A stretch of DNA of 64,000 nt, taken from the NCBI RefSeq assembly GCF_051903065.1, contig NZ_CP178438.1, one strand, 5' to 3'. Below are positions 12,361 through 42,561 of the stretch, piece after piece. Position 1 is the stretch's first letter, and each line of letters begins with the position of its first letter. Both the position numbers and the translations under genes were made by a program. A model generated the notes under the pieces. The model saw nothing but the letters and a program-made list of their open reading frames with translations, did not search any database and had not been told where the DNA came from. This stretch comes from Escherichia coli. GTDB taxonomy: Bacteria > Pseudomonadota > Gammaproteobacteria > Enterobacterales > Enterobacteriaceae.

Positions 12361-13043
12361 AGGTCAGCCCTCTTCACACCCACGGAGTAGCGGCGCTCAA
12401 GGAACAGCAGCACACCATTGGAAACGGTGGTGAAAACCAGGTAAATCACGCCACAGACGATAGCGAAATAGAACGGTTCCCAGGTACTTTTGCCTGCCAG
12501 TTGGGTGGCTTTGACCACATCTTCCAGGCCAAGTAACGAAACCAGGGCGGTAGATTTGAGGATCACCTGCCAGTTGTTGCCAATGCCTGGCAGGGCGTAA
12601 CGCATCATCGCCGGAAACATGATCCGCCGAAACACTTGCCCACGAGTAAAACCGAACGCCGTCGCCGCCTCTATATGCCCTTTCGGCACTGCCATAAACG
12701 CGCCACGGAACGTTTCGGTGAAGTAAGCACCGTAGATAAAACCGAGAGTGATAATACCAGCGACCATCGGATCGATATCAATCTGCCCGACGCCCATCGC
12801 CTCCGTCACCGTGTTTAGTGCAATCTGCAAACCGTAGAAAATCAGCAGCATCAACACCAAGTCCGGCACGCCACGAATCAGCGTGGTGTAGCCTTCGAAA
12901 ATCAGCCCCGAAAGCCGATTTTGCGAGAGCTTACCGCCAGCGCCAATTAAACCGATGATTACAGCGAGCACTACAGAGCTGATAGCCAGCTCCAGCGTGA
13001 CGAGCGCACCCTGTAAAATAACACCTGAAAACCCATACAACAT
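12357..13043 (-). CDS. hisQ: histidine ABC transporter permease
   Basis: 228 aa; 4-bp overlap with hisM. Confidence 0.9.
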   Translation of the reverse strand: MLYGFSGVILQGALVTLELAISSVVLAVIIGLIGAGGKLSQNRLSGLIFEGYTTLIRGVPDLVLMLLIFYGLQIALNTVTEAMGVGQIDIDPMVAGIITLGFIYGAYFTETFRGAFMAVPKGHIEAATAFGFTRGQVFRRIMFPAMMRYALPGIGNNWQVILKSTALVSLLGLEDVVKATQLAGKSTWEPFYFAIVCGVIYLVFTTVSNGVLLFLERRYSVGVKRADL

Positions 13044-13132
13044 GCAGCCTGTCCTGTCGTGTGTGGTGAATTACCGCCTCTTGTCTCCCTCCAGTTACCC
13101 GAAGGGAGCGGGCTTTCTTTCACCGATGGCGA

Positions 13133-13915
13133 TTAGCCACCATAAACATCAAAATCGAAGTACTTTTTCGCTAATTTCTCGTAAGTACCGTCAGCGCGCA
13201 TTTCGGCAAAGGCTTTGTTCAGTGCCTCGCGCAGTTCGTTATCTTCTTTACGCAGGCCCATGCCGGTCCCTACGCCAAACAGTTTTTCATCTTTAACAGA
13301 CGGGCCACCGAATTTGTAATCTTTACCGACAGGTTGTTTAAGGAAACCTTCACTGGCAGCGACCTCATCCTGGAACGCGGCATCAATACGTCCGGCAGTC
13401 AGGTCAGAATAAATGTTGTCCTGCCCCTGATACGAGACGATTTCAATGCCTTTTGGTGCCCAGTGTTCATTACCGAACGTCTCCTGGGTGGTGCCCTGCA
13501 ATACGCCTACCCGTTTGCCTTTCAGCGACTCGACTGTCGGCTGAATGTTGGAATTTTTCGCCACCACCAGACGAGAATCGGCAGCGTACAGTTTGTCGGT
13601 GAAGGCAATTTCTTGCTGACGTTTTTCCGTAATGGAAAGCGATGACATGATGGCGTCAATCTTCTTCGCTTTTAAGGACGGGATTAATGCATCCAGCGGA
13701 TTTTCGACAAACGTACATTGCGTATTGATGCGTTTGCATAATTCCTTTGCCAGATCGATATCGAAGCCAACCAGTTCGCCTTGTGAATTTTTTGATTCAA
13801 ATGGCGCATAGGTCGGGTCGGTACCGATGCGGATGTTTTGCGGAATCGCAGCAAATGCCGCAGTTGCGCTGGAGAAGGCCAGAACCAGAGAGAGCGATAG
13901 CACCAGTTTTTTCAT
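13133..13915 (-). CDS. hisJ: histidine-binding periplasmic protein
   Basis: 260 aa with signal peptide; paralogue of downstream argT. Confidence 0.95.
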
Positions 13916-14135
13916 AATGTCCTCAACTGACAGTCTTTTTATAGGGAATATTTACAGGTTTGTTACACTTATCGTGCCATAAAATTGACCATCAAGGCAA
14001 AATATCCCGCCCCGTTAGACGTATTATTTTTCATTAAAAATGCTTAAGTATGCATTTCAATGCACCACGATAGTGCAACAAACCTGGCGTGCACCATGAT
14101 GATCATTCCATCAGGTACAGCTTCCCTGCGACGTA

Positions 14136-14918
14136 TCAGTCACCGTAGACATTAAAGTCAAAATACTTTTTCGCCATCTTGTCGTAAGTGCCGTCCTGAC
14201 GCAGCTCGCCAAGCGCCTTATTGAAGGCAGCCGTCAGTTCAGCATCATCTTTACGTAGCCCTACACCGGTGCCATCACCGAAGTATTTTTTGTCTTTTAC
14301 TGATGAGCCAGCAAAGGCGAAGTCTTTACCAGCAGGTTGCTTGAGGAATCCTTCGCTGGCAGCAACTTCATCCTGCAGTGCAGCATCCAGACGTCCTGCA
14401 GCCAGATCGGAATAGACCAAATCCTGGTTGGCATAGGCCACCACATCCACACCTTTGCTACGCCAGGTCTCGTTAGCGTAAGCTTCCTGGGTTGATCCCT
14501 GCAGCACACCAACATGTTTACCTTTCAGTGAATCCAGCGTTGGCTGAATCGGTGAACCTTTGGCGGCAATCAGACGAGAATCTGCGGCGTACAGCTTGTC
14601 GGAGAAGGCAATCTCCTGCTGACGTTTATCGGTAATGGAAAGCGACGAAATAATGGCGTCGATTTTTTTCGCTTTCAGTGAGGGGATCAGCGCGTCAAAG
14701 TCACTGGCAACCCAGGTACATTTCACCTGCATCCGTTTGCACATCTCGTTACCGAGATCGATGTCAAAGCCAACAAAATCACCTTTAGCATCTTTCGATG
14801 AGAACGGTGCGTAGGTGGTATCGGTTCCGATACGTACCGTCTCCGGTAGCGCCGCATAGCTGGAAGCCGCTGCGGAGAGACCGACTAACAAAGACAGAGC
14901 GAGAATCGACTTCTTCAT
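14136..14918 (-). CDS. argT: lysine/arginine/ornithine-binding periplasmic protein
   Basis: 260 aa; [39 protein letters not shown]. Confidence 0.95.
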
Positions 14919-14985
14919 ACATAACCCTCAAGTGAAAATGGCTTTTTTATGTTGTGTATTGTGTTGTGTGTTTGCAGGCTCTTTC

Positions 14986-15002
14986 ATGCAGGTCTTATGC
15001 CA
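14986..15002 (-). promoter_or_regulatory. candidate sigma-54 (-24/-12) promoter for argT
   Basis: Minus strand reads TGGCATAAGACCTGCAT (consensus TGGCAC-N5-TTGCA), about 70 bp upstream of the argT start. Confidence 0.45.
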
Positions 15003-15183
15003 TCTTGACGACAACAGTAACATTCAACGTTAAATGTGTTAATAAGACGTTGCATTATTGTCCTGAAGTTGAAGATAGCAGGTATAGCGGTTGAATCGCA
15101 GCGTTTCGATTGAATGGCAGAAACAAAATGTCGAGGATTTGATCGCGGTTGCAAAATTGCCCTGAAACAGGGCAACAGCGGAG

Positions 15184-15753
15184 TTATGCGCCCTGCCAGC
15201 GGGCAAAGAGATCTTCAGGAAGGGTTATCGCAAACTGGTCAAGAACACGATTAACCGTCTGATTTATCACATCATCAAGGGATTGCGGGCGATGATAAAA
15301 CGCCGGAACGGGAGGCATAATCACCGCACCGATTTCTGCTGCCTGAGTCATTAAACGCAGATGACCTAAGTGCAATGGTGTTTCACGCACGCAAAGCACC
15401 AACGGGCGGCGCTCTTTCAGCACCACATCTGCCGCACGGGTCAGTAAGCCATCAGTATAGCTATGGACAATGCCGGACAGAGTTTTGATTGAACAGGGTA
15501 AAATCACCATCCCCAACGTCTGGAAAGAACCGGAAGAGATGCTGGCGGCAATATCGCGCGCATCATGCGTGACATCAGCTAATGCCTGCACTTCGCGCAG
15601 GGAAAAATCCGTTTCGAGGGATAAGGTCTGGCGCGCCGCCTGGCTCATCACCAGATGCGTTTCGATATCTGTGACATCGCGCAGAACCTGTAATAAGCGC
15701 ACGCCATAAATCGCGCCGCTGGCACCGCTGATGCCCACAATAAGTCGTTTCAT
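15184..15753 (-). CDS. ubiX: flavin prenyltransferase
   Basis: 189 aa; MKRLIVGISGASGAIYGVRLLQVL. Confidence 0.9.
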   Translation of the reverse strand: MKRLIVGISGASGAIYGVRLLQVLRDVTDIETHLVMSQAARQTLSLETDFSLREVQALADVTHDARDIAASISSGSFQTLGMVILPCSIKTLSGIVHSYTDGLLTRAADVVLKERRPLVLCVRETPLHLGHLRLMTQAAEIGAVIMPPVPAFYHRPQSLDDVINQTVNRVLDQFAITLPEDLFARWQGA

Positions 15754-15847
15754 AAATAGTTGCCCTGTCAGACTTGCAGGCAGACTTTGCAGGATTTCGG
15801 CGGGAGTTGCAAGTCAGGGTGCCAGACCGGCACCCTGAGCGAAGGCA

Positions 15848-17365
15848 TCATCCTTCGTTATGCATTTCGAGATTTTCCACTTCGTTCTGACGTTGCACTG
15901 CTTTGGCGTCGTCATTACGTAAAGTATCGAGGAAATCGAGGTAGCCCTGATCAACATCTTTGGTGACGTAGACGCCGTTGAACACCGAGCATTCAAACTG
16001 CTGGATATCCGGGTTTTCAGCGCGAACGGCTTCGATCAGATCGTTCAGATCCTGGAAAATCAACCCGTCAGCACCGATGATCTGGCGAATTTCATCTACT
16101 TCGCGACCGTGAGCGATCAGTTCCGTGGCGCTCGGCATATCAATACCATAAACGTTCGGGAAGCGAATTTCCGGTGCCGCAGAAGCGAGGTACACTTTCT
16201 TCGCTCCGGCTTCGCGTGCCATCTCGATAATCTGCTCAGAAGTGGTGCCACGGACGATAGAGTCGTCGACCAGCAGGACGTTTTTATCGCGGAACTCGGC
16301 GCGGTTGGCGTTCAGTTTACGGCGCACGGACTTACGACGCAGCTGCTGGCCCGGCATGATGAAGGTGCGGCCAACATAGCGGTTTTTAACGAAGCCCTGG
16401 CGGTACGGTTTGCCCAGAATACGAGCAATTTCCAGCGCGATATCACACGAGGTTTCCGGAATAGGGATCACCACGTCGATATCCAGATCTTCCCATTCGC
16501 GGGCAATTTTCTCACCCAGTTTCGTGCCCATATTCACACGTGCGCTGTAAACGGAAATTTTGTCGATGAACGAGTCCGGGCGGGCAAAGTATACATACTC
16601 AAACAGGCACGGATTGCTGACCGGATTGTCAGCACATTGACGGGTAAACAACTGCCCTTCTTCAGTGATGTAAATCGCTTCGCCCGGCGCGACATCACGC
16701 AGGAAATCAAAGCCCAGCGTATCGAGCGCTACGCTTTCGGAAGCGACCATATATTCTGTGCGGTTCTCGTCTATATCACGTTTTCCCAGAACCAGCGGAC
16801 GAATACCGTTTGGATCGCGGAAAGCAACCATACCGTGGCCGATAATCATCGCCACACAGGCATACGCGCCGCGGATTAAGCGGTTTGTAGCAGCGATGGC
16901 GGCGAAAATGTTGTCGGCTTCCAGCGGGTAGTGGCGGAAGTTGTCCAGCTCGCTGGCGAAGATATTAAGCAGAATTTCCGAGTCGGAAGTGGTGTTGATG
17001 TGGCGGCGTTTTTCTTCAAACAGTTTTTTACGCAACTCGTGAGCGTTGGTCAGATTGCCGTTGTGGGCAAGCGTAATGCCATACGGGGAGTTAACGTAAA
17101 ACGGCTGCGCTTCAGAGGCGCTGGAGCTGCCAGCCGTGGGGTAACGCACATGACCAATGCCCATATTGCCCTGCAAACGCTGCATATGGCGAGCTTCAAA
17201 TACATCGCTCACCAGCCCGTTCGCTTTACGCAAACGGAAGCAGTTATTGGCATCTATGGTGATGATGCCGGCGGCATCCTGACCGCGATGCTGAAGCACC
17301 GTTAAGGCATCATAAATCGACTGGTTAACCGGCATAACACCGGCGATACCGACAATACCGCACAT
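15848..17365 (-). CDS. purF: amidophosphoribosyltransferase
   Basis: 505 aa; N-terminal MCGIVGI with catalytic Cys. Confidence 0.97.
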
Positions 17366-17963: not shown

Positions 17964-18057
17964 GGGATTTCCTTCCCGCGCATCAATAAAAATGGCGCTG
18001 AAAAAATATTCAACGCCATCGACTTTTTATGCCTTTGCGGCATCGTGCAATGCGTGT

Positions 18058-18420
<363 letters not shown>

Positions 18421-25349: not shown

Positions 25350-27523
<2,174 letters not shown>

Positions 27524-36049: not shown

Positions 36050-36601
36050 ATGAAAAAGAAAACAACACTTAGCGAGGAGGACCAGGCTCTGTTTCGCCAG
36101 TTGATGGCGGGGACTCGCAAGATTAAGCAGGACACGATTGTCCATCGGCCACAGCGTAAAAAAGTCAGCGAAGTGCCGGTGAAACGCTTGATCCAGGAGC
36201 AGGCTGATGCCAGCCATTATTTCTCAGATGAGTTTCAGCCGTTACTGAATACCGAAGGCCCAGTGAAATATGTCCGCCCGGATGTTAGTCATTTTGAAGC
36301 GAAGAAGTTGCGACGCGGTGATTATTCGCCGGAATTGTTTTTGGATTTACACGGTCTGACGCAGCTACAGGCCAAGCAGGAACTGGGGGCGTTGATTGCC
36401 GCCTGCCGCCGTGAACATGTGTTTTGCGCTTGCGTAATGCACGGGCACGGGAAGCATATTTTAAAACAGCAAACGCCGCTGTGGCTGGCACAACATCCGC
36501 ATGTAATGGCATTTCACCAGGCGCCGAAAGAGTACGGCGGAGATGCAGCGTTGTTAGTGTTGATTGAAGTGGAAGAGTGGCTACCGCCGGAGTTGCCATG
36601 A
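36050..36601 (+). CDS. smrB: Smr-domain ribosome-rescue endonuclease
   Basis: 183 aa with C-terminal Smr domain; divergent from prmB. Confidence 0.85.
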
Positions 36602-39909: not shown

Positions 39910-42561
39910 TTAATTGGCGGATACCGATACCGGTGCTTCCGTTGGCATCACCTGCTGGGTCTGCTCCTGGATCATCGGCTTAATTTCATGAGGCATCGAA
40001 GGAGATATCCCCCCTGTTTGCTGGCATGGTAATAACAGGCCATTGAACAGATCGGCTGGCAGCGGGTCAGGCAGATGAATATCGCAGTGGGCCACACCGC
40101 CCCATGAAACGATCATATGCTCGCCAGGTTTGACGCCCGCGAGGTAGACGTTGCCGTCATCGTCAACCAGACCGACGTTCTGCGCGCTGTCGTTTTTCAC
40201 TTCCGCGCCAAACGGCGGATAACTGCCATCTTGCAGACGCAGCACCGCCATCGCTTTTTGCCCGCTGATCACCGAGAACTTACGGTAGCCAATGGCCCCT
40301 TCGGTAAGGGTGGCCTGCACCACGGACTGGGTGGCTTCGGCGTTTTCCGGCAGGTTGTTTAGGTCGATATACGCCTGGTTGCGGTAGTAGTTGTTGACGT
40401 CGGCCACCACGGCCTTACCGAACATATTGGTGTAAACCGCCGCGCCATTTCCTTCCACCGGAACACCGGCCACACCATCGGCATCAATCAGCAGGCGCGT
40501 ACCGCCCATATTCTGGGTACGGTGGAGCGCGCCACCCTGCGCGGTCAGCGTCGCCCCGCCCTGTAAGGAAATACCTGCCGAGGTGTACTGTCCTTCATGG
40601 TAGTTGGCGCTGAGGTCCACCTGCGCCAGCGAGCCATCGTGGCTGTAATAGCCGTCAACGCTGGAGTGTTTGTCACTGGTCCCCACGTTCAGCTGGTAGT
40701 GAGTTGCGTCATCGACACGGCTGAAATACCCCACCTGGCTGCTGTCCGAACCGCTGCCGTAGTTGCCGTTATAGCTGATGGTGCTGCTGTCACCCCACGG
40801 CATACTGAGCGATATGTACACACCTTTATCGGCCTGGTTGTCATACTCGTAGCGGTATCCGGTCATGGAAATGCTCATGTTGCGGATACTGCCCAGGTTG
40901 AAGTAGTGCGAGAGCATGATGTTGTAGTTAGTCTGTTCGTCGCGATCCCAGTAGGTATGGCGGGTGTAGTTGAGATAAACAGACACACCGGCATCCCTGA
41001 AGTTCTGGTTATAGGTGGCGGTGTACATCTCTTTGTCGTTGCCGGTGCGCACCATTTCGCTGTCGCTGGCATCGAGATACTCGCTCATGGTCATGAAGTT
41101 CTCTTCCGAGAAGCGGTATCCGGCAAAAGTGACGCGGCTGTTCAGTTCATCGAAGTCTTTGGAATAGCTCACGCGAAACGAGTTACCGTCCAGTGACCCT
41201 TTACCGTAGGCGGTCTCTTTATCCAGGCGGGTATGCGAGTGGGTGATATCAAAGGCGACTGCGCCAAAGACAGACAGGTCGCGACCGACGCCAAGTGCCG
41301 CCGACTGATAGTGTTCATCTGCCAGCGCCCCGCCGTATAGCGACCAGCCGTTGGCAATCCCCCAGGAAGCTTCGCCGCCGGAGAAGAAACCGCCTTCCAC
41401 GTGGTGCCCCCACTCCTGCGGGCGGCCCATCATCAGTTTATAGCGCACCTGGCCGGGGCGGGTCAGGAACGGCATTGACGCAGTGTTAATGTCATATTCC
41501 TGCACCTGACCGTTCTGCTCTTCAATGCGGATATGCAGCGTACCGGAGACGGAATCGCCAAGGTCCTGGATACGGAACGGCCCCGCCGGGACCTGAGTTT
41601 CGTAAATCACGCGGCCCATCTGGCTGACGGTCACTTTCGCGGTGGTGTGCGCCACGCCGGAGATATCCGGCGCATAGCCGCGCAGATTCGGCGGCAACAT
41701 TTGATCGTCGGTGCTGATACTGCCACCCACGTAGTTAAAGCCGTCGAAAATATCAGAATTCAGGTAGTCTTCGCCAAGGCCAAGTTTGGCTTTTAGCGAC
41801 GGTAAGGCTCGCCAGGCGTAGTAGCGGCTCCACTCCCAGTTTTTTTGCGTGTCATCACCGTTGATAACATCGTCATCATTGCTTTTACTATGCAAATAAT
41901 CAGTCTGCCAGTCGGCACGAAGACGCCATGCGCCGAGGTTCACCCCAACCGTCCCGTTACCGCTAATTTCATTGCTGTCATCCCCGCCATTTTCTTCATG
42001 TCGTGTCTGGGCGGTAATACTGTAGTCAGCAATTAAACCAGATATACCGTCATCCCAGCGTGAAGGCGGATCCCAGTTGATGTCGGTATATTCAAGGTAA
42101 GCCTGGGGTAATGAAATGACTAACGCTGACTGACTCAGGTCAGCTTTAATATCAATGCCTTCCAGTTGACCGGGTTTCAGGCATTTGCCGTCGTGGATCC
42201 ATTGCAGGTTTTTTGCCACATCCTCTTTTAAGCCAAACTGCGCGACCAGTTCAGGCGTCAGGCAGGCATAGGTTTTACTGGCATCGTTCTCTGAGGCGTA
42301 CCAGTAAATATCGTATTCTTCCGTCAGCGGCTGTTTATTTAGTTGAACCTGTAAATTGTATTTCCCAGGCTCGACATAACCCTGGCTGGAAAATCGCTTC
42401 AGATCGATTTTTGTGTCGCCTTTTAACTCCAGAAAACGGGAATCAAACTGAATTTCATCTTCAGCCCAGGCATTGACATAACTCCCGGACATTGCCAATG
42501 CAACGCAGCAGGGAAGTACCCGCAGTCGGAAAAGAGAATGGTCAGGCATACACGTATCCAT
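39910..42561 (-). CDS. yfcU: outer-membrane fimbrial usher, intact
   Basis: One uninterrupted 883-aa ORF (a split pseudogene in K-12). Confidence 0.85.
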   Translation of the reverse strand: MDTCMPDHSLFRLRVLPCCVALAMSGSYVNAWAEDEIQFDSRFLELKGDTKIDLKRFSSQGYVEPGKYNLQVQLNKQPLTEEYDIYWYASENDASKTYACLTPELVAQFGLKEDVAKNLQWIHDGKCLKPGQLEGIDIKADLSQSALVISLPQAYLEYTDINWDPPSRWDDGISGLIADYSITAQTRHEENGGDDSNEISGNGTVGVNLGAWRLRADWQTDYLHSKSNDDDVINGDDTQKNWEWSRYYAWRALPSLKAKLGLGEDYLNSDIFDGFNYVGGSISTDDQMLPPNLRGYAPDISGVAHTTAKVTVSQMGRVIYETQVPAGPFRIQDLGDSVSGTLHIRIEEQNGQVQEYDINTASMPFLTRPGQVRYKLMMGRPQEWGHHVEGGFFSGGEASWGIANGWSLYGGALADEHYQSAALGVGRDLSVFGAVAFDITHSHTRLDKETAYGKGSLDGNSFRVSYSKDFDELNSRVTFAGYRFSEENFMTMSEYLDASDSEMVRTGNDKEMYTATYNQNFRDAGVSVYLNYTRHTYWDRDEQTNYNIMLSHYFNLGSIRNMSISMTGYRYEYDNQADKGVYISLSMPWGDSSTISYNGNYGSGSDSSQVGYFSRVDDATHYQLNVGTSDKHSSVDGYYSHDGSLAQVDLSANYHEGQYTSAGISLQGGATLTAQGGALHRTQNMGGTRLLIDADGVAGVPVEGNGAAVYTNMFGKAVVADVNNYYRNQAYIDLNNLPENAEATQSVVQATLTEGAIGYRKFSVISGQKAMAVLRLQDGSYPPFGAEVKNDSAQNVGLVDDDGNVYLAGVKPGEHMIVSWGGVAHCDIHLPDPLPADLFNGLLLPCQQTGGISPSMPHEIKPMIQEQTQQVMPTEAPVSVSAN

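Follow-up and report, generated by a model that had tools for sequence, protein, structure and literature searches.

The -24/-12 element upstream of argT in Escherichia coli is very probably its known, NtrC-activated sigma-54 promoter

The 64,000-nucleotide stretch of Escherichia coli DNA analysed here (the window) contains, upstream of argT, a -24/-12 element that we identify with high confidence as argTp, the sigma-54 (RpoN)-dependent promoter of argT that is activated by NtrC under nitrogen limitation. It probably also serves the argT-hisJQMP transcript. The argT sigma-54 promoter is already known, and the element found here is the same one in another E. coli strain. What was recovered from a raw sequence reading is a real, experimentally supported regulatory element that links nitrogen scarcity, via NtrC and sigma-54, to the uptake of lysine, arginine and ornithine, and current understanding is unchanged by it. 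Points of modest interest are the location of the NtrC enhancer for E. coli argTp and the possible decay of a hisJ sigma-54 promoter in Escherichia. The promoter element and its gene are placed as follows:

14986 to 15002, minus strand: sigma-54 -24/-12 promoter element (argTp), identified by its sequence, its rank as top matrix match, its conservation and its identity with the ChIP-seq site OS22

14136 to 14918, minus strand: coding sequence of argT, the lysine/arginine/ornithine periplasmic binding protein, from an ORF of 260 amino acids and the RefSeq annotation under the match

Read directly from the minus strand, the motif is TGGCATAAGACCTGCAT (15002 to 14986), with the GG at 15001-15000 and the GC at 14989-14988. 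The 10 nt between these dinucleotides match the spacing of the sigma-54 consensus TGGCAC-N5-TTGCA, the argT site being TGGCAT-AAGAC-CTGCA. The original prediction had reported this minus-strand motif with GG and GC at -24/-12 spacing, and its string and coordinates proved exact on re-reading; the distance that it put at about 70 bp to the argT start was measured as 67 nt to the ATG (14918). The motif is intergenic, in the 265 bp between ubiX and argT, where it lies on the sense strand and points at argT. Gene order at the E. coli locus is hisPMQJ-argT-ubiX-purF, with hisP, hisM, hisQ, hisJ, argT, ubiX, purF, cvpA and dedD as neighbouring ORFs. A 1.4-kb query around the site found a match over at least 80% of its length in 5,424 of 5,426 complete E. 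coli genomes, with argT annotated between ubiX and hisJ, and over this region the window strain diverges by 1-5% from most of them. In 5,423 genomes a 71-bp segment around the motif is present as a single chromosomal copy with at least 95% identity, and RefSeq places no annotation on it. A 63-amino-acid ORF with a TTG start (14984-15175) was considered as a gene and rejected, since it covers a terminator hairpin as well as that part of the spacer which is hypervariable and rich in indels.

Published data place sigma-54 on this sequence in E. coli. Window positions were converted to U00096.2 by adding 2,410,895, a conversion that was verified on the motif centre. The MG1655 sigma-54 ChIP-seq site OS22 has its peak centre at 2425886 and the motif ATGGCATAAGACCTGCA on the minus strand, with argT as the downstream gene, a signal 12-fold above threshold and a predicted start 58 nt from argT; in EcoCyc the argT promoter was listed in 2015 as predicted, not confirmed. 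The published table contains no other high-stringency sigma-54 ChIP-seq site in the genomic interval matching the window, and the other matrix matches in the window are therefore not detectably bound. In vitro, gSELEX with RpoN holoenzyme gave a peak in the argT-ubiX spacer with an intensity of 61% without NtrC and 55% with NtrC. Among 12 sigma-54 promoters tested as gfp fusions argTp was the strongest, and it has been used as a strong stationary-phase expression part.

The same element has an experimental record in Salmonella. The 17-mer of E. coli K-12 argTp (OS22) and that of the Salmonella Typhimurium LT2 argT promoter (STM2355) are identical, at the same position and in the same ubiX-argT-hisJ context. 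The Salmonella Typhimurium promoter (TGGCATAAGACCTGCATG) is bound by sigma-54 in ChIP-chip, argT expression there is 3.5-fold higher in the wild type than in a delta-rpoN strain when a promiscuous activator is supplied, and argT is cited among four operons experimentally shown to be sigma-54-dependent. As regards NtrC, ChIP-seq of nitrogen-starved E. coli gave a peak at 2425861-2425941 (14966-15046 in the window) that is weak (5.4-fold) and was called by eye, and the same study cites argT as NtrC-induced by expression analysis. The published NtrC gSELEX list contains neither the ubiX-argT spacer nor the argT-hisJ spacer. Both halves of the original prediction are supported by this record: the sigma-54 promoter reading agrees with OS22, the RpoN gSELEX peak, the identical Salmonella promoter and the conservation across genera described below, and NtrC control of argT is supported by the weak ChIP peak, the NtrC-induced expression and the Salmonella data.

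Conservation was assessed with argT orthologues found by a degenerate DNA pattern for an ArgT-specific peptide, scanning one genome per species. The scan yielded 45 loci, 38 of them enterobacterial argT genes, and the upstream regions of these 38 were aligned together with that of the window, giving 39 sequences from Escherichia, Salmonella, Citrobacter, Pseudocitrobacter, Kluyvera and two divergent taxa. In 39/39 regions the top-scoring sense-strand match to the matrix occupies one and the same position of the alignment, 55-74 nt upstream of the ATG. All nine core bases (TGGCA and TGCA) are invariant across the 39 sequences and their spacing is constant, while invariant positions number 1/7 in the motif spacer, 2/24 in each flank and 52/265 (20%) over the whole intergenic spacer. 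The seven nucleotides that follow TGGCA differ between sequences, occurring as TAAGACC, TAAAAGC, CAGAAGA, CGGAAGA, CGAAAAC and TGAAACC. An invariant core amid a variable spacer and flanks is the footprint that would be expected under selection on a -24/-12 element, and a published conservation table for the argT site, in which 13 species have matrix scores of 9.4 or more, agrees with the alignment.

The strength of the motif taken by itself was gauged with a sigma-54 matrix trained on 41 other intergenic, ChIP-seq-verified sites (training scores 8.7-21.6 bits), argT being excluded. A scan with an RpoN matrix had been named as a check in the original prediction; here the argT site ranks first in the window on both strands, at 14.7 bits, and 29th of 42 among known sigma-54 sites. 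In simulated sequence, matches of equal score are expected about 1.4 times per 64 kb of both strands, and chance could thus account for the motif taken alone; for the 265 bp between ubiX and argT, counting the sense strand only, the expectation derived from the same simulation is about 0.003. For the loose pattern TGGCAY-N6-TGCW the window contains three matches where 0.89 would be expected; as many as three turned up in 5 of 100 shuffles. By itself the argT motif is thus not statistically remarkable, and its significance comes from context, that is, from conservation and published binding data. These frequencies are what speaks for the alternative that the motif is a functionless chance match, which we regard as virtually untenable given the nine invariant core bases between variable spacer and flanks and the convergence of ChIP-seq, gSELEX and Salmonella data on the site. 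Further matrix matches of 13.5-14.2 bits, GTGGCAAAAAACCTGCA, CTGGCACAACATCCGCA and CTGGCGCAACGTCTGCT, lie at 42203-42219 (minus strand), 36485-36501 (plus strand) and 25596-25612 (plus strand); since no published high-stringency sigma-54 ChIP-seq site corresponds to them, these three are probably due to chance.

The sigma-54 element overlaps a second promoter, lying just downstream of its predicted start; this promoter was identified by a hexamer search:

15014 to 15042, minus strand: sigma-70-type promoter with a -35 TTAACA (15042-15037), a 17-nt spacer and a TG-extended -10 TACTGT (15019-15014)

A simple sigma-70/terminator scan of 13850-15250 returned no sigma-70 promoter at threshold, and the relaxed hexamer search was needed. 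This promoter is predicted to start near 15008, so that the sigma-54 motif would span +6 to +22, within 1 nt of its placement in a published Table S3 relative to an RNA-seq-inferred sigma-70 start of argT (also +6 to +22). Under non-limiting conditions the level of argT RNA in the presence of rpoN is reported to be 23% of that in its absence (about 4-fold higher without rpoN), hence sigma-54 is not needed for basal expression, and in competition experiments in vitro sigma-54 lowers sigma-70 initiation on argT DNA. A 2021 study proposed that RpoN promoters occupied in the absence of an enhancer have a dual repressor/transcriptase role. From the published repression by rpoN and the matching sigma-70 promoter it follows that sigma-54 holoenzyme parked at argT has such a dual role, both awaiting activation and dampening basal sigma-70 transcription. 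The sites at glmY and glmZ and the class I/II repressive sites at chaC, patA and mdfA resemble argT in that a sigma-54 site overlaps a sigma-70 footprint and expression rises without rpoN. They differ in that the argT motif lies downstream of the sigma-70 start (class II) and is not fully coincident with that promoter, and in that the sigma-54 promoter at argT is itself productive under nitrogen limitation.

The repression data could be taken further, to mean that the argT site is mainly a repressive parking site at which sigma-54 rarely fires while sigma-70 supplies most of the argT mRNA. The 23% RNA level, the position of the motif at +6 to +22, the competition in vitro and the 2021 proposal all fit such a site, as do the suitably placed TTAACA-17-TACTGT promoter, which is plausible, and the lack of an upstream NtrC site at argT in E. 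coli. We nevertheless consider it unlikely. The induction of argT depends on NtrC, sigma-54 activates argT in Salmonella, and RpoD gSELEX detects a constitutive promoter for hisJ but none for argT. In the alignment of 39 sequences the sigma-70 -10 falls where the spacer varies most and lacks conservation in the other genera, whereas the -24/-12 bases are invariant across genera. Moreover, repressive and productive roles can coexist, as they do in the reading of argTp as an NtrC-activated promoter that is preferred here.

Transcription from argTp is predicted to produce a short leader:

14976, minus strand: predicted sigma-54 start, counted with C14988 as -12 (about 12 nt after the GC), equal to the published prediction and 19 bp from the motif centre

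14919 to 14975, minus strand: predicted argT 5' UTR (58-nt leader), from the sequence, with the Shine-Dalgarno sequence GAGGG at 14929-14925

Literature searches found no mapped sigma-54 start of argT in E. coli, 5' RACE data included; we infer both the exact start site and the NtrC sites that serve as enhancers in E. coli. The 5' UTR contains a C/A-rich run, GCAAACACACAACACAATACACAACAT (14975-14949, minus strand), of which ACACAAC is kept in all genera. The small RNA GcvB targets argT through its R1 seed, a relationship that has been verified in Salmonella and is conserved in E. coli, and the C/A-rich run, which would fit this status, is a candidate for the pairing site. Transcripts from either promoter would include this run, as the sigma-54 and the sigma-70 start are both upstream of it.

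Sigma-54 holoenzyme binds the GG at -24 and the GC at -12 as a closed complex that is unable to open unaided, and phosphorylated NtrC bound at enhancer sites loops to this complex and drives opening by ATP hydrolysis. At argTp, sigma-54 RNA polymerase would accordingly park at these two dinucleotides in a stable closed complex until, under nitrogen limitation, phosphorylated NtrC (GlnG) would contact it by DNA looping and open the promoter with ATP hydrolysis. Transcription would then begin near 14976 and yield an mRNA with the 58-nt leader that bears the putative C/A-rich GcvB target. While NtrC is inactive, the parked holoenzyme would hinder the weak sigma-70 promoter that is predicted to start at about 15008.

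Classical NtrC sites lie 100-150 bp upstream of the promoter, and such sites have been described upstream of glnAp2, glnHp2, glnK, nac and astC. These promoters share with argTp the -24/-12 architecture, the regulon and targets in nitrogen scavenging and transport. In contrast to promoters of the glnAp2 type, argTp has no NtrC-like site in its upstream spacer, and a consensus site occurs only on the downstream side, at a distance of about 925 bp. A search for upstream NtrC enhancers, the second check named in the original prediction, thus came out negative: the 265-bp ubiX-argT spacer has no match to TGCACC-N5-GGTGCA at up to three mismatches and no GCAC or GTGC core at all. The candidate sites are instead in the argT-hisJ spacer:

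14061 to 14077, no strand assigned: consensus NtrC site TGCACTATCGTGGTGCA between argT and hisJ, a candidate enhancer located downstream of the -24/-12 element at a distance of about 925 bp

14090 to 14119, no strand assigned: second conserved NtrC half-site pair, TGTACC-N18-GGTGCA, in the argT-hisJ spacer upstream of the consensus site

The site at 14061-14077 is the only match without mismatch to TGCACY-N5-RGTGCA in the window and the only near-consensus site within 13000-17000. In the alignment it is conserved across genera together with the half-site pair at 14090-14119, where TGCACC...GGTGCA is retained in Citrobacter, Salmonella and Escherichia. The published NtrC ChIP peak in the argT-hisJ spacer is strong (23.7-fold) and coincides with 14061-14077. 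The consensus site also abuts the -35 of a published constitutive sigma-70 promoter of hisJ, TTGAAA (14060-14055)-16-TTTAAT (14038-14033), and NtrC bound there could act both as an enhancer and by interfering with that promoter.

Action of NtrC from distances like 925 bp is known in general. Judged from the position of its consensus, the site at 14061-14077 may act on argTp from downstream in E. coli, and the weak NtrC ChIP signal at argTp may reflect looping contact from this spacer enhancer. In genera other than Escherichia, about 30 extra bp follow the ubiX stop (between 15183 and 15184 of the window) and carry a 17-bp dyad, for example in the loci L005, L008 and L037. This segment contains a near-consensus NtrC site in Pseudocitrobacter (TGCACCAnTnTGGTGCT; TGCACCAGTGTGGTGCT); the dyad is degenerate in Citrobacter, Salmonella and Kluyvera, and the segment is missing from all Escherichia sequences. 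Compared with Salmonella and Citrobacter, Escherichia lacks a counterpart of the extra segment, while the promoter core shows no difference.

The missing upstream site also bears on whether the activator is NtrC. Upstream of the sigma-54 element the alignment contains one further constrained stretch:

15028 to 15048, minus strand: conserved block CTTATTAACAcATTTAACG, which contains the sigma-70 -35 and spans about -52 to -72 relative to the predicted sigma-54 start

Seven of its 21 columns are invariant, and its mean entropy of 0.32 bits compares with 1.20 bits over the next 24 nt; the block adjoins a hypervariable stretch. A genuine sigma-54 promoter at argT that is activated by some enhancer-binding protein distinct from NtrC would be in keeping with this block, with the lack of an NtrC consensus site in the upstream spacer and with an NtrC gSELEX list that does not include the ubiX-argT spacer. 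We judge this very improbable, however: NtrC gives a ChIP signal at argTp and a strong one at a distance of 925 bp, listings for both E. coli and Salmonella count argT as NtrC-dependent, and activator sites usually lie farther from their promoters than this block does. The block matches none of the IHF, ArgR, Nac and NtrC consensus sequences, and scans of the whole ubiX-argT spacer for IHF (up to one mismatch), the ArgR box (up to four) and the Nac consensus were likewise without a match.

A sigma-54-like motif, ATGGCACGATAAGTGTA, also occurs next to hisJ (13964-13980, minus strand), 49 nt upstream of the hisJ ATG (13915), and is the fifth-best matrix match in the window. Its counterparts are TGGCACGATAACTGCA in Citrobacter and Kluyvera, TGGCACGATAGCCGCA in Salmonella and TGGCACGATAAGTGTA in every Escherichia sequence. 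The GC of the -12 element is kept in Salmonella, Citrobacter, Kluyvera and Pseudocitrobacter (CTGCA, CTGCT or CCGCA) and lost in all Escherichia, where TGCA has become TGTA. For E. coli, no sigma-54 ChIP peak is listed at this motif at either published stringency. Judged by these base changes, it looks like a hisJ sigma-54 promoter that has been weakened specifically in the Escherichia lineage.

The absence of the dyad segment on the ubiX side, the loss of the -12 GC at hisJ with no sigma-54 ChIP signal there, and the strong binding of NtrC to the spacer enhancer lead us to suggest, tentatively and as somewhat less than an even prospect, that nitrogen control of argT-hisJ has been rewired in Escherichia. 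An enhancer about 925 bp downstream, inside its own transcription unit, would then activate argTp, and the induction of hisJQMP would be read-through from argTp.

The remaining features of the neighbourhood are minor. Directly after ubiX, a hairpin TTGCCCTG-TTT-CAGGGCAA followed by TTTT (15153-15175, minus strand) is probably the terminator of cvpA-purF-ubiX. Its stem is preserved by compensatory changes, TTGCCCCG/CGGGGCAA in L020 and TCGCCCTG/CAGGGCGA in L005. A palindrome with two mismatches at 15158-15174 was considered as an NtrC site and rejected, as it is this terminator-like hairpin, with its compensatory changes in other genera. An Rfam search of 13800-15300 at E-values up to 1 returned no RNA family. 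The cvpA-dedD spacer (about 18029-18340), in which no good -24/-12 motif was seen, carries a REP-like repeat in three tandem copies, seen as short, nearly identical ORFs that begin MNALSDLRFYPCVGLIRR; within this spacer falls a published gSELEX peak of RpoN holoenzyme at 2,429,072 (about 18177 in the window), with an intensity of 31-32%.
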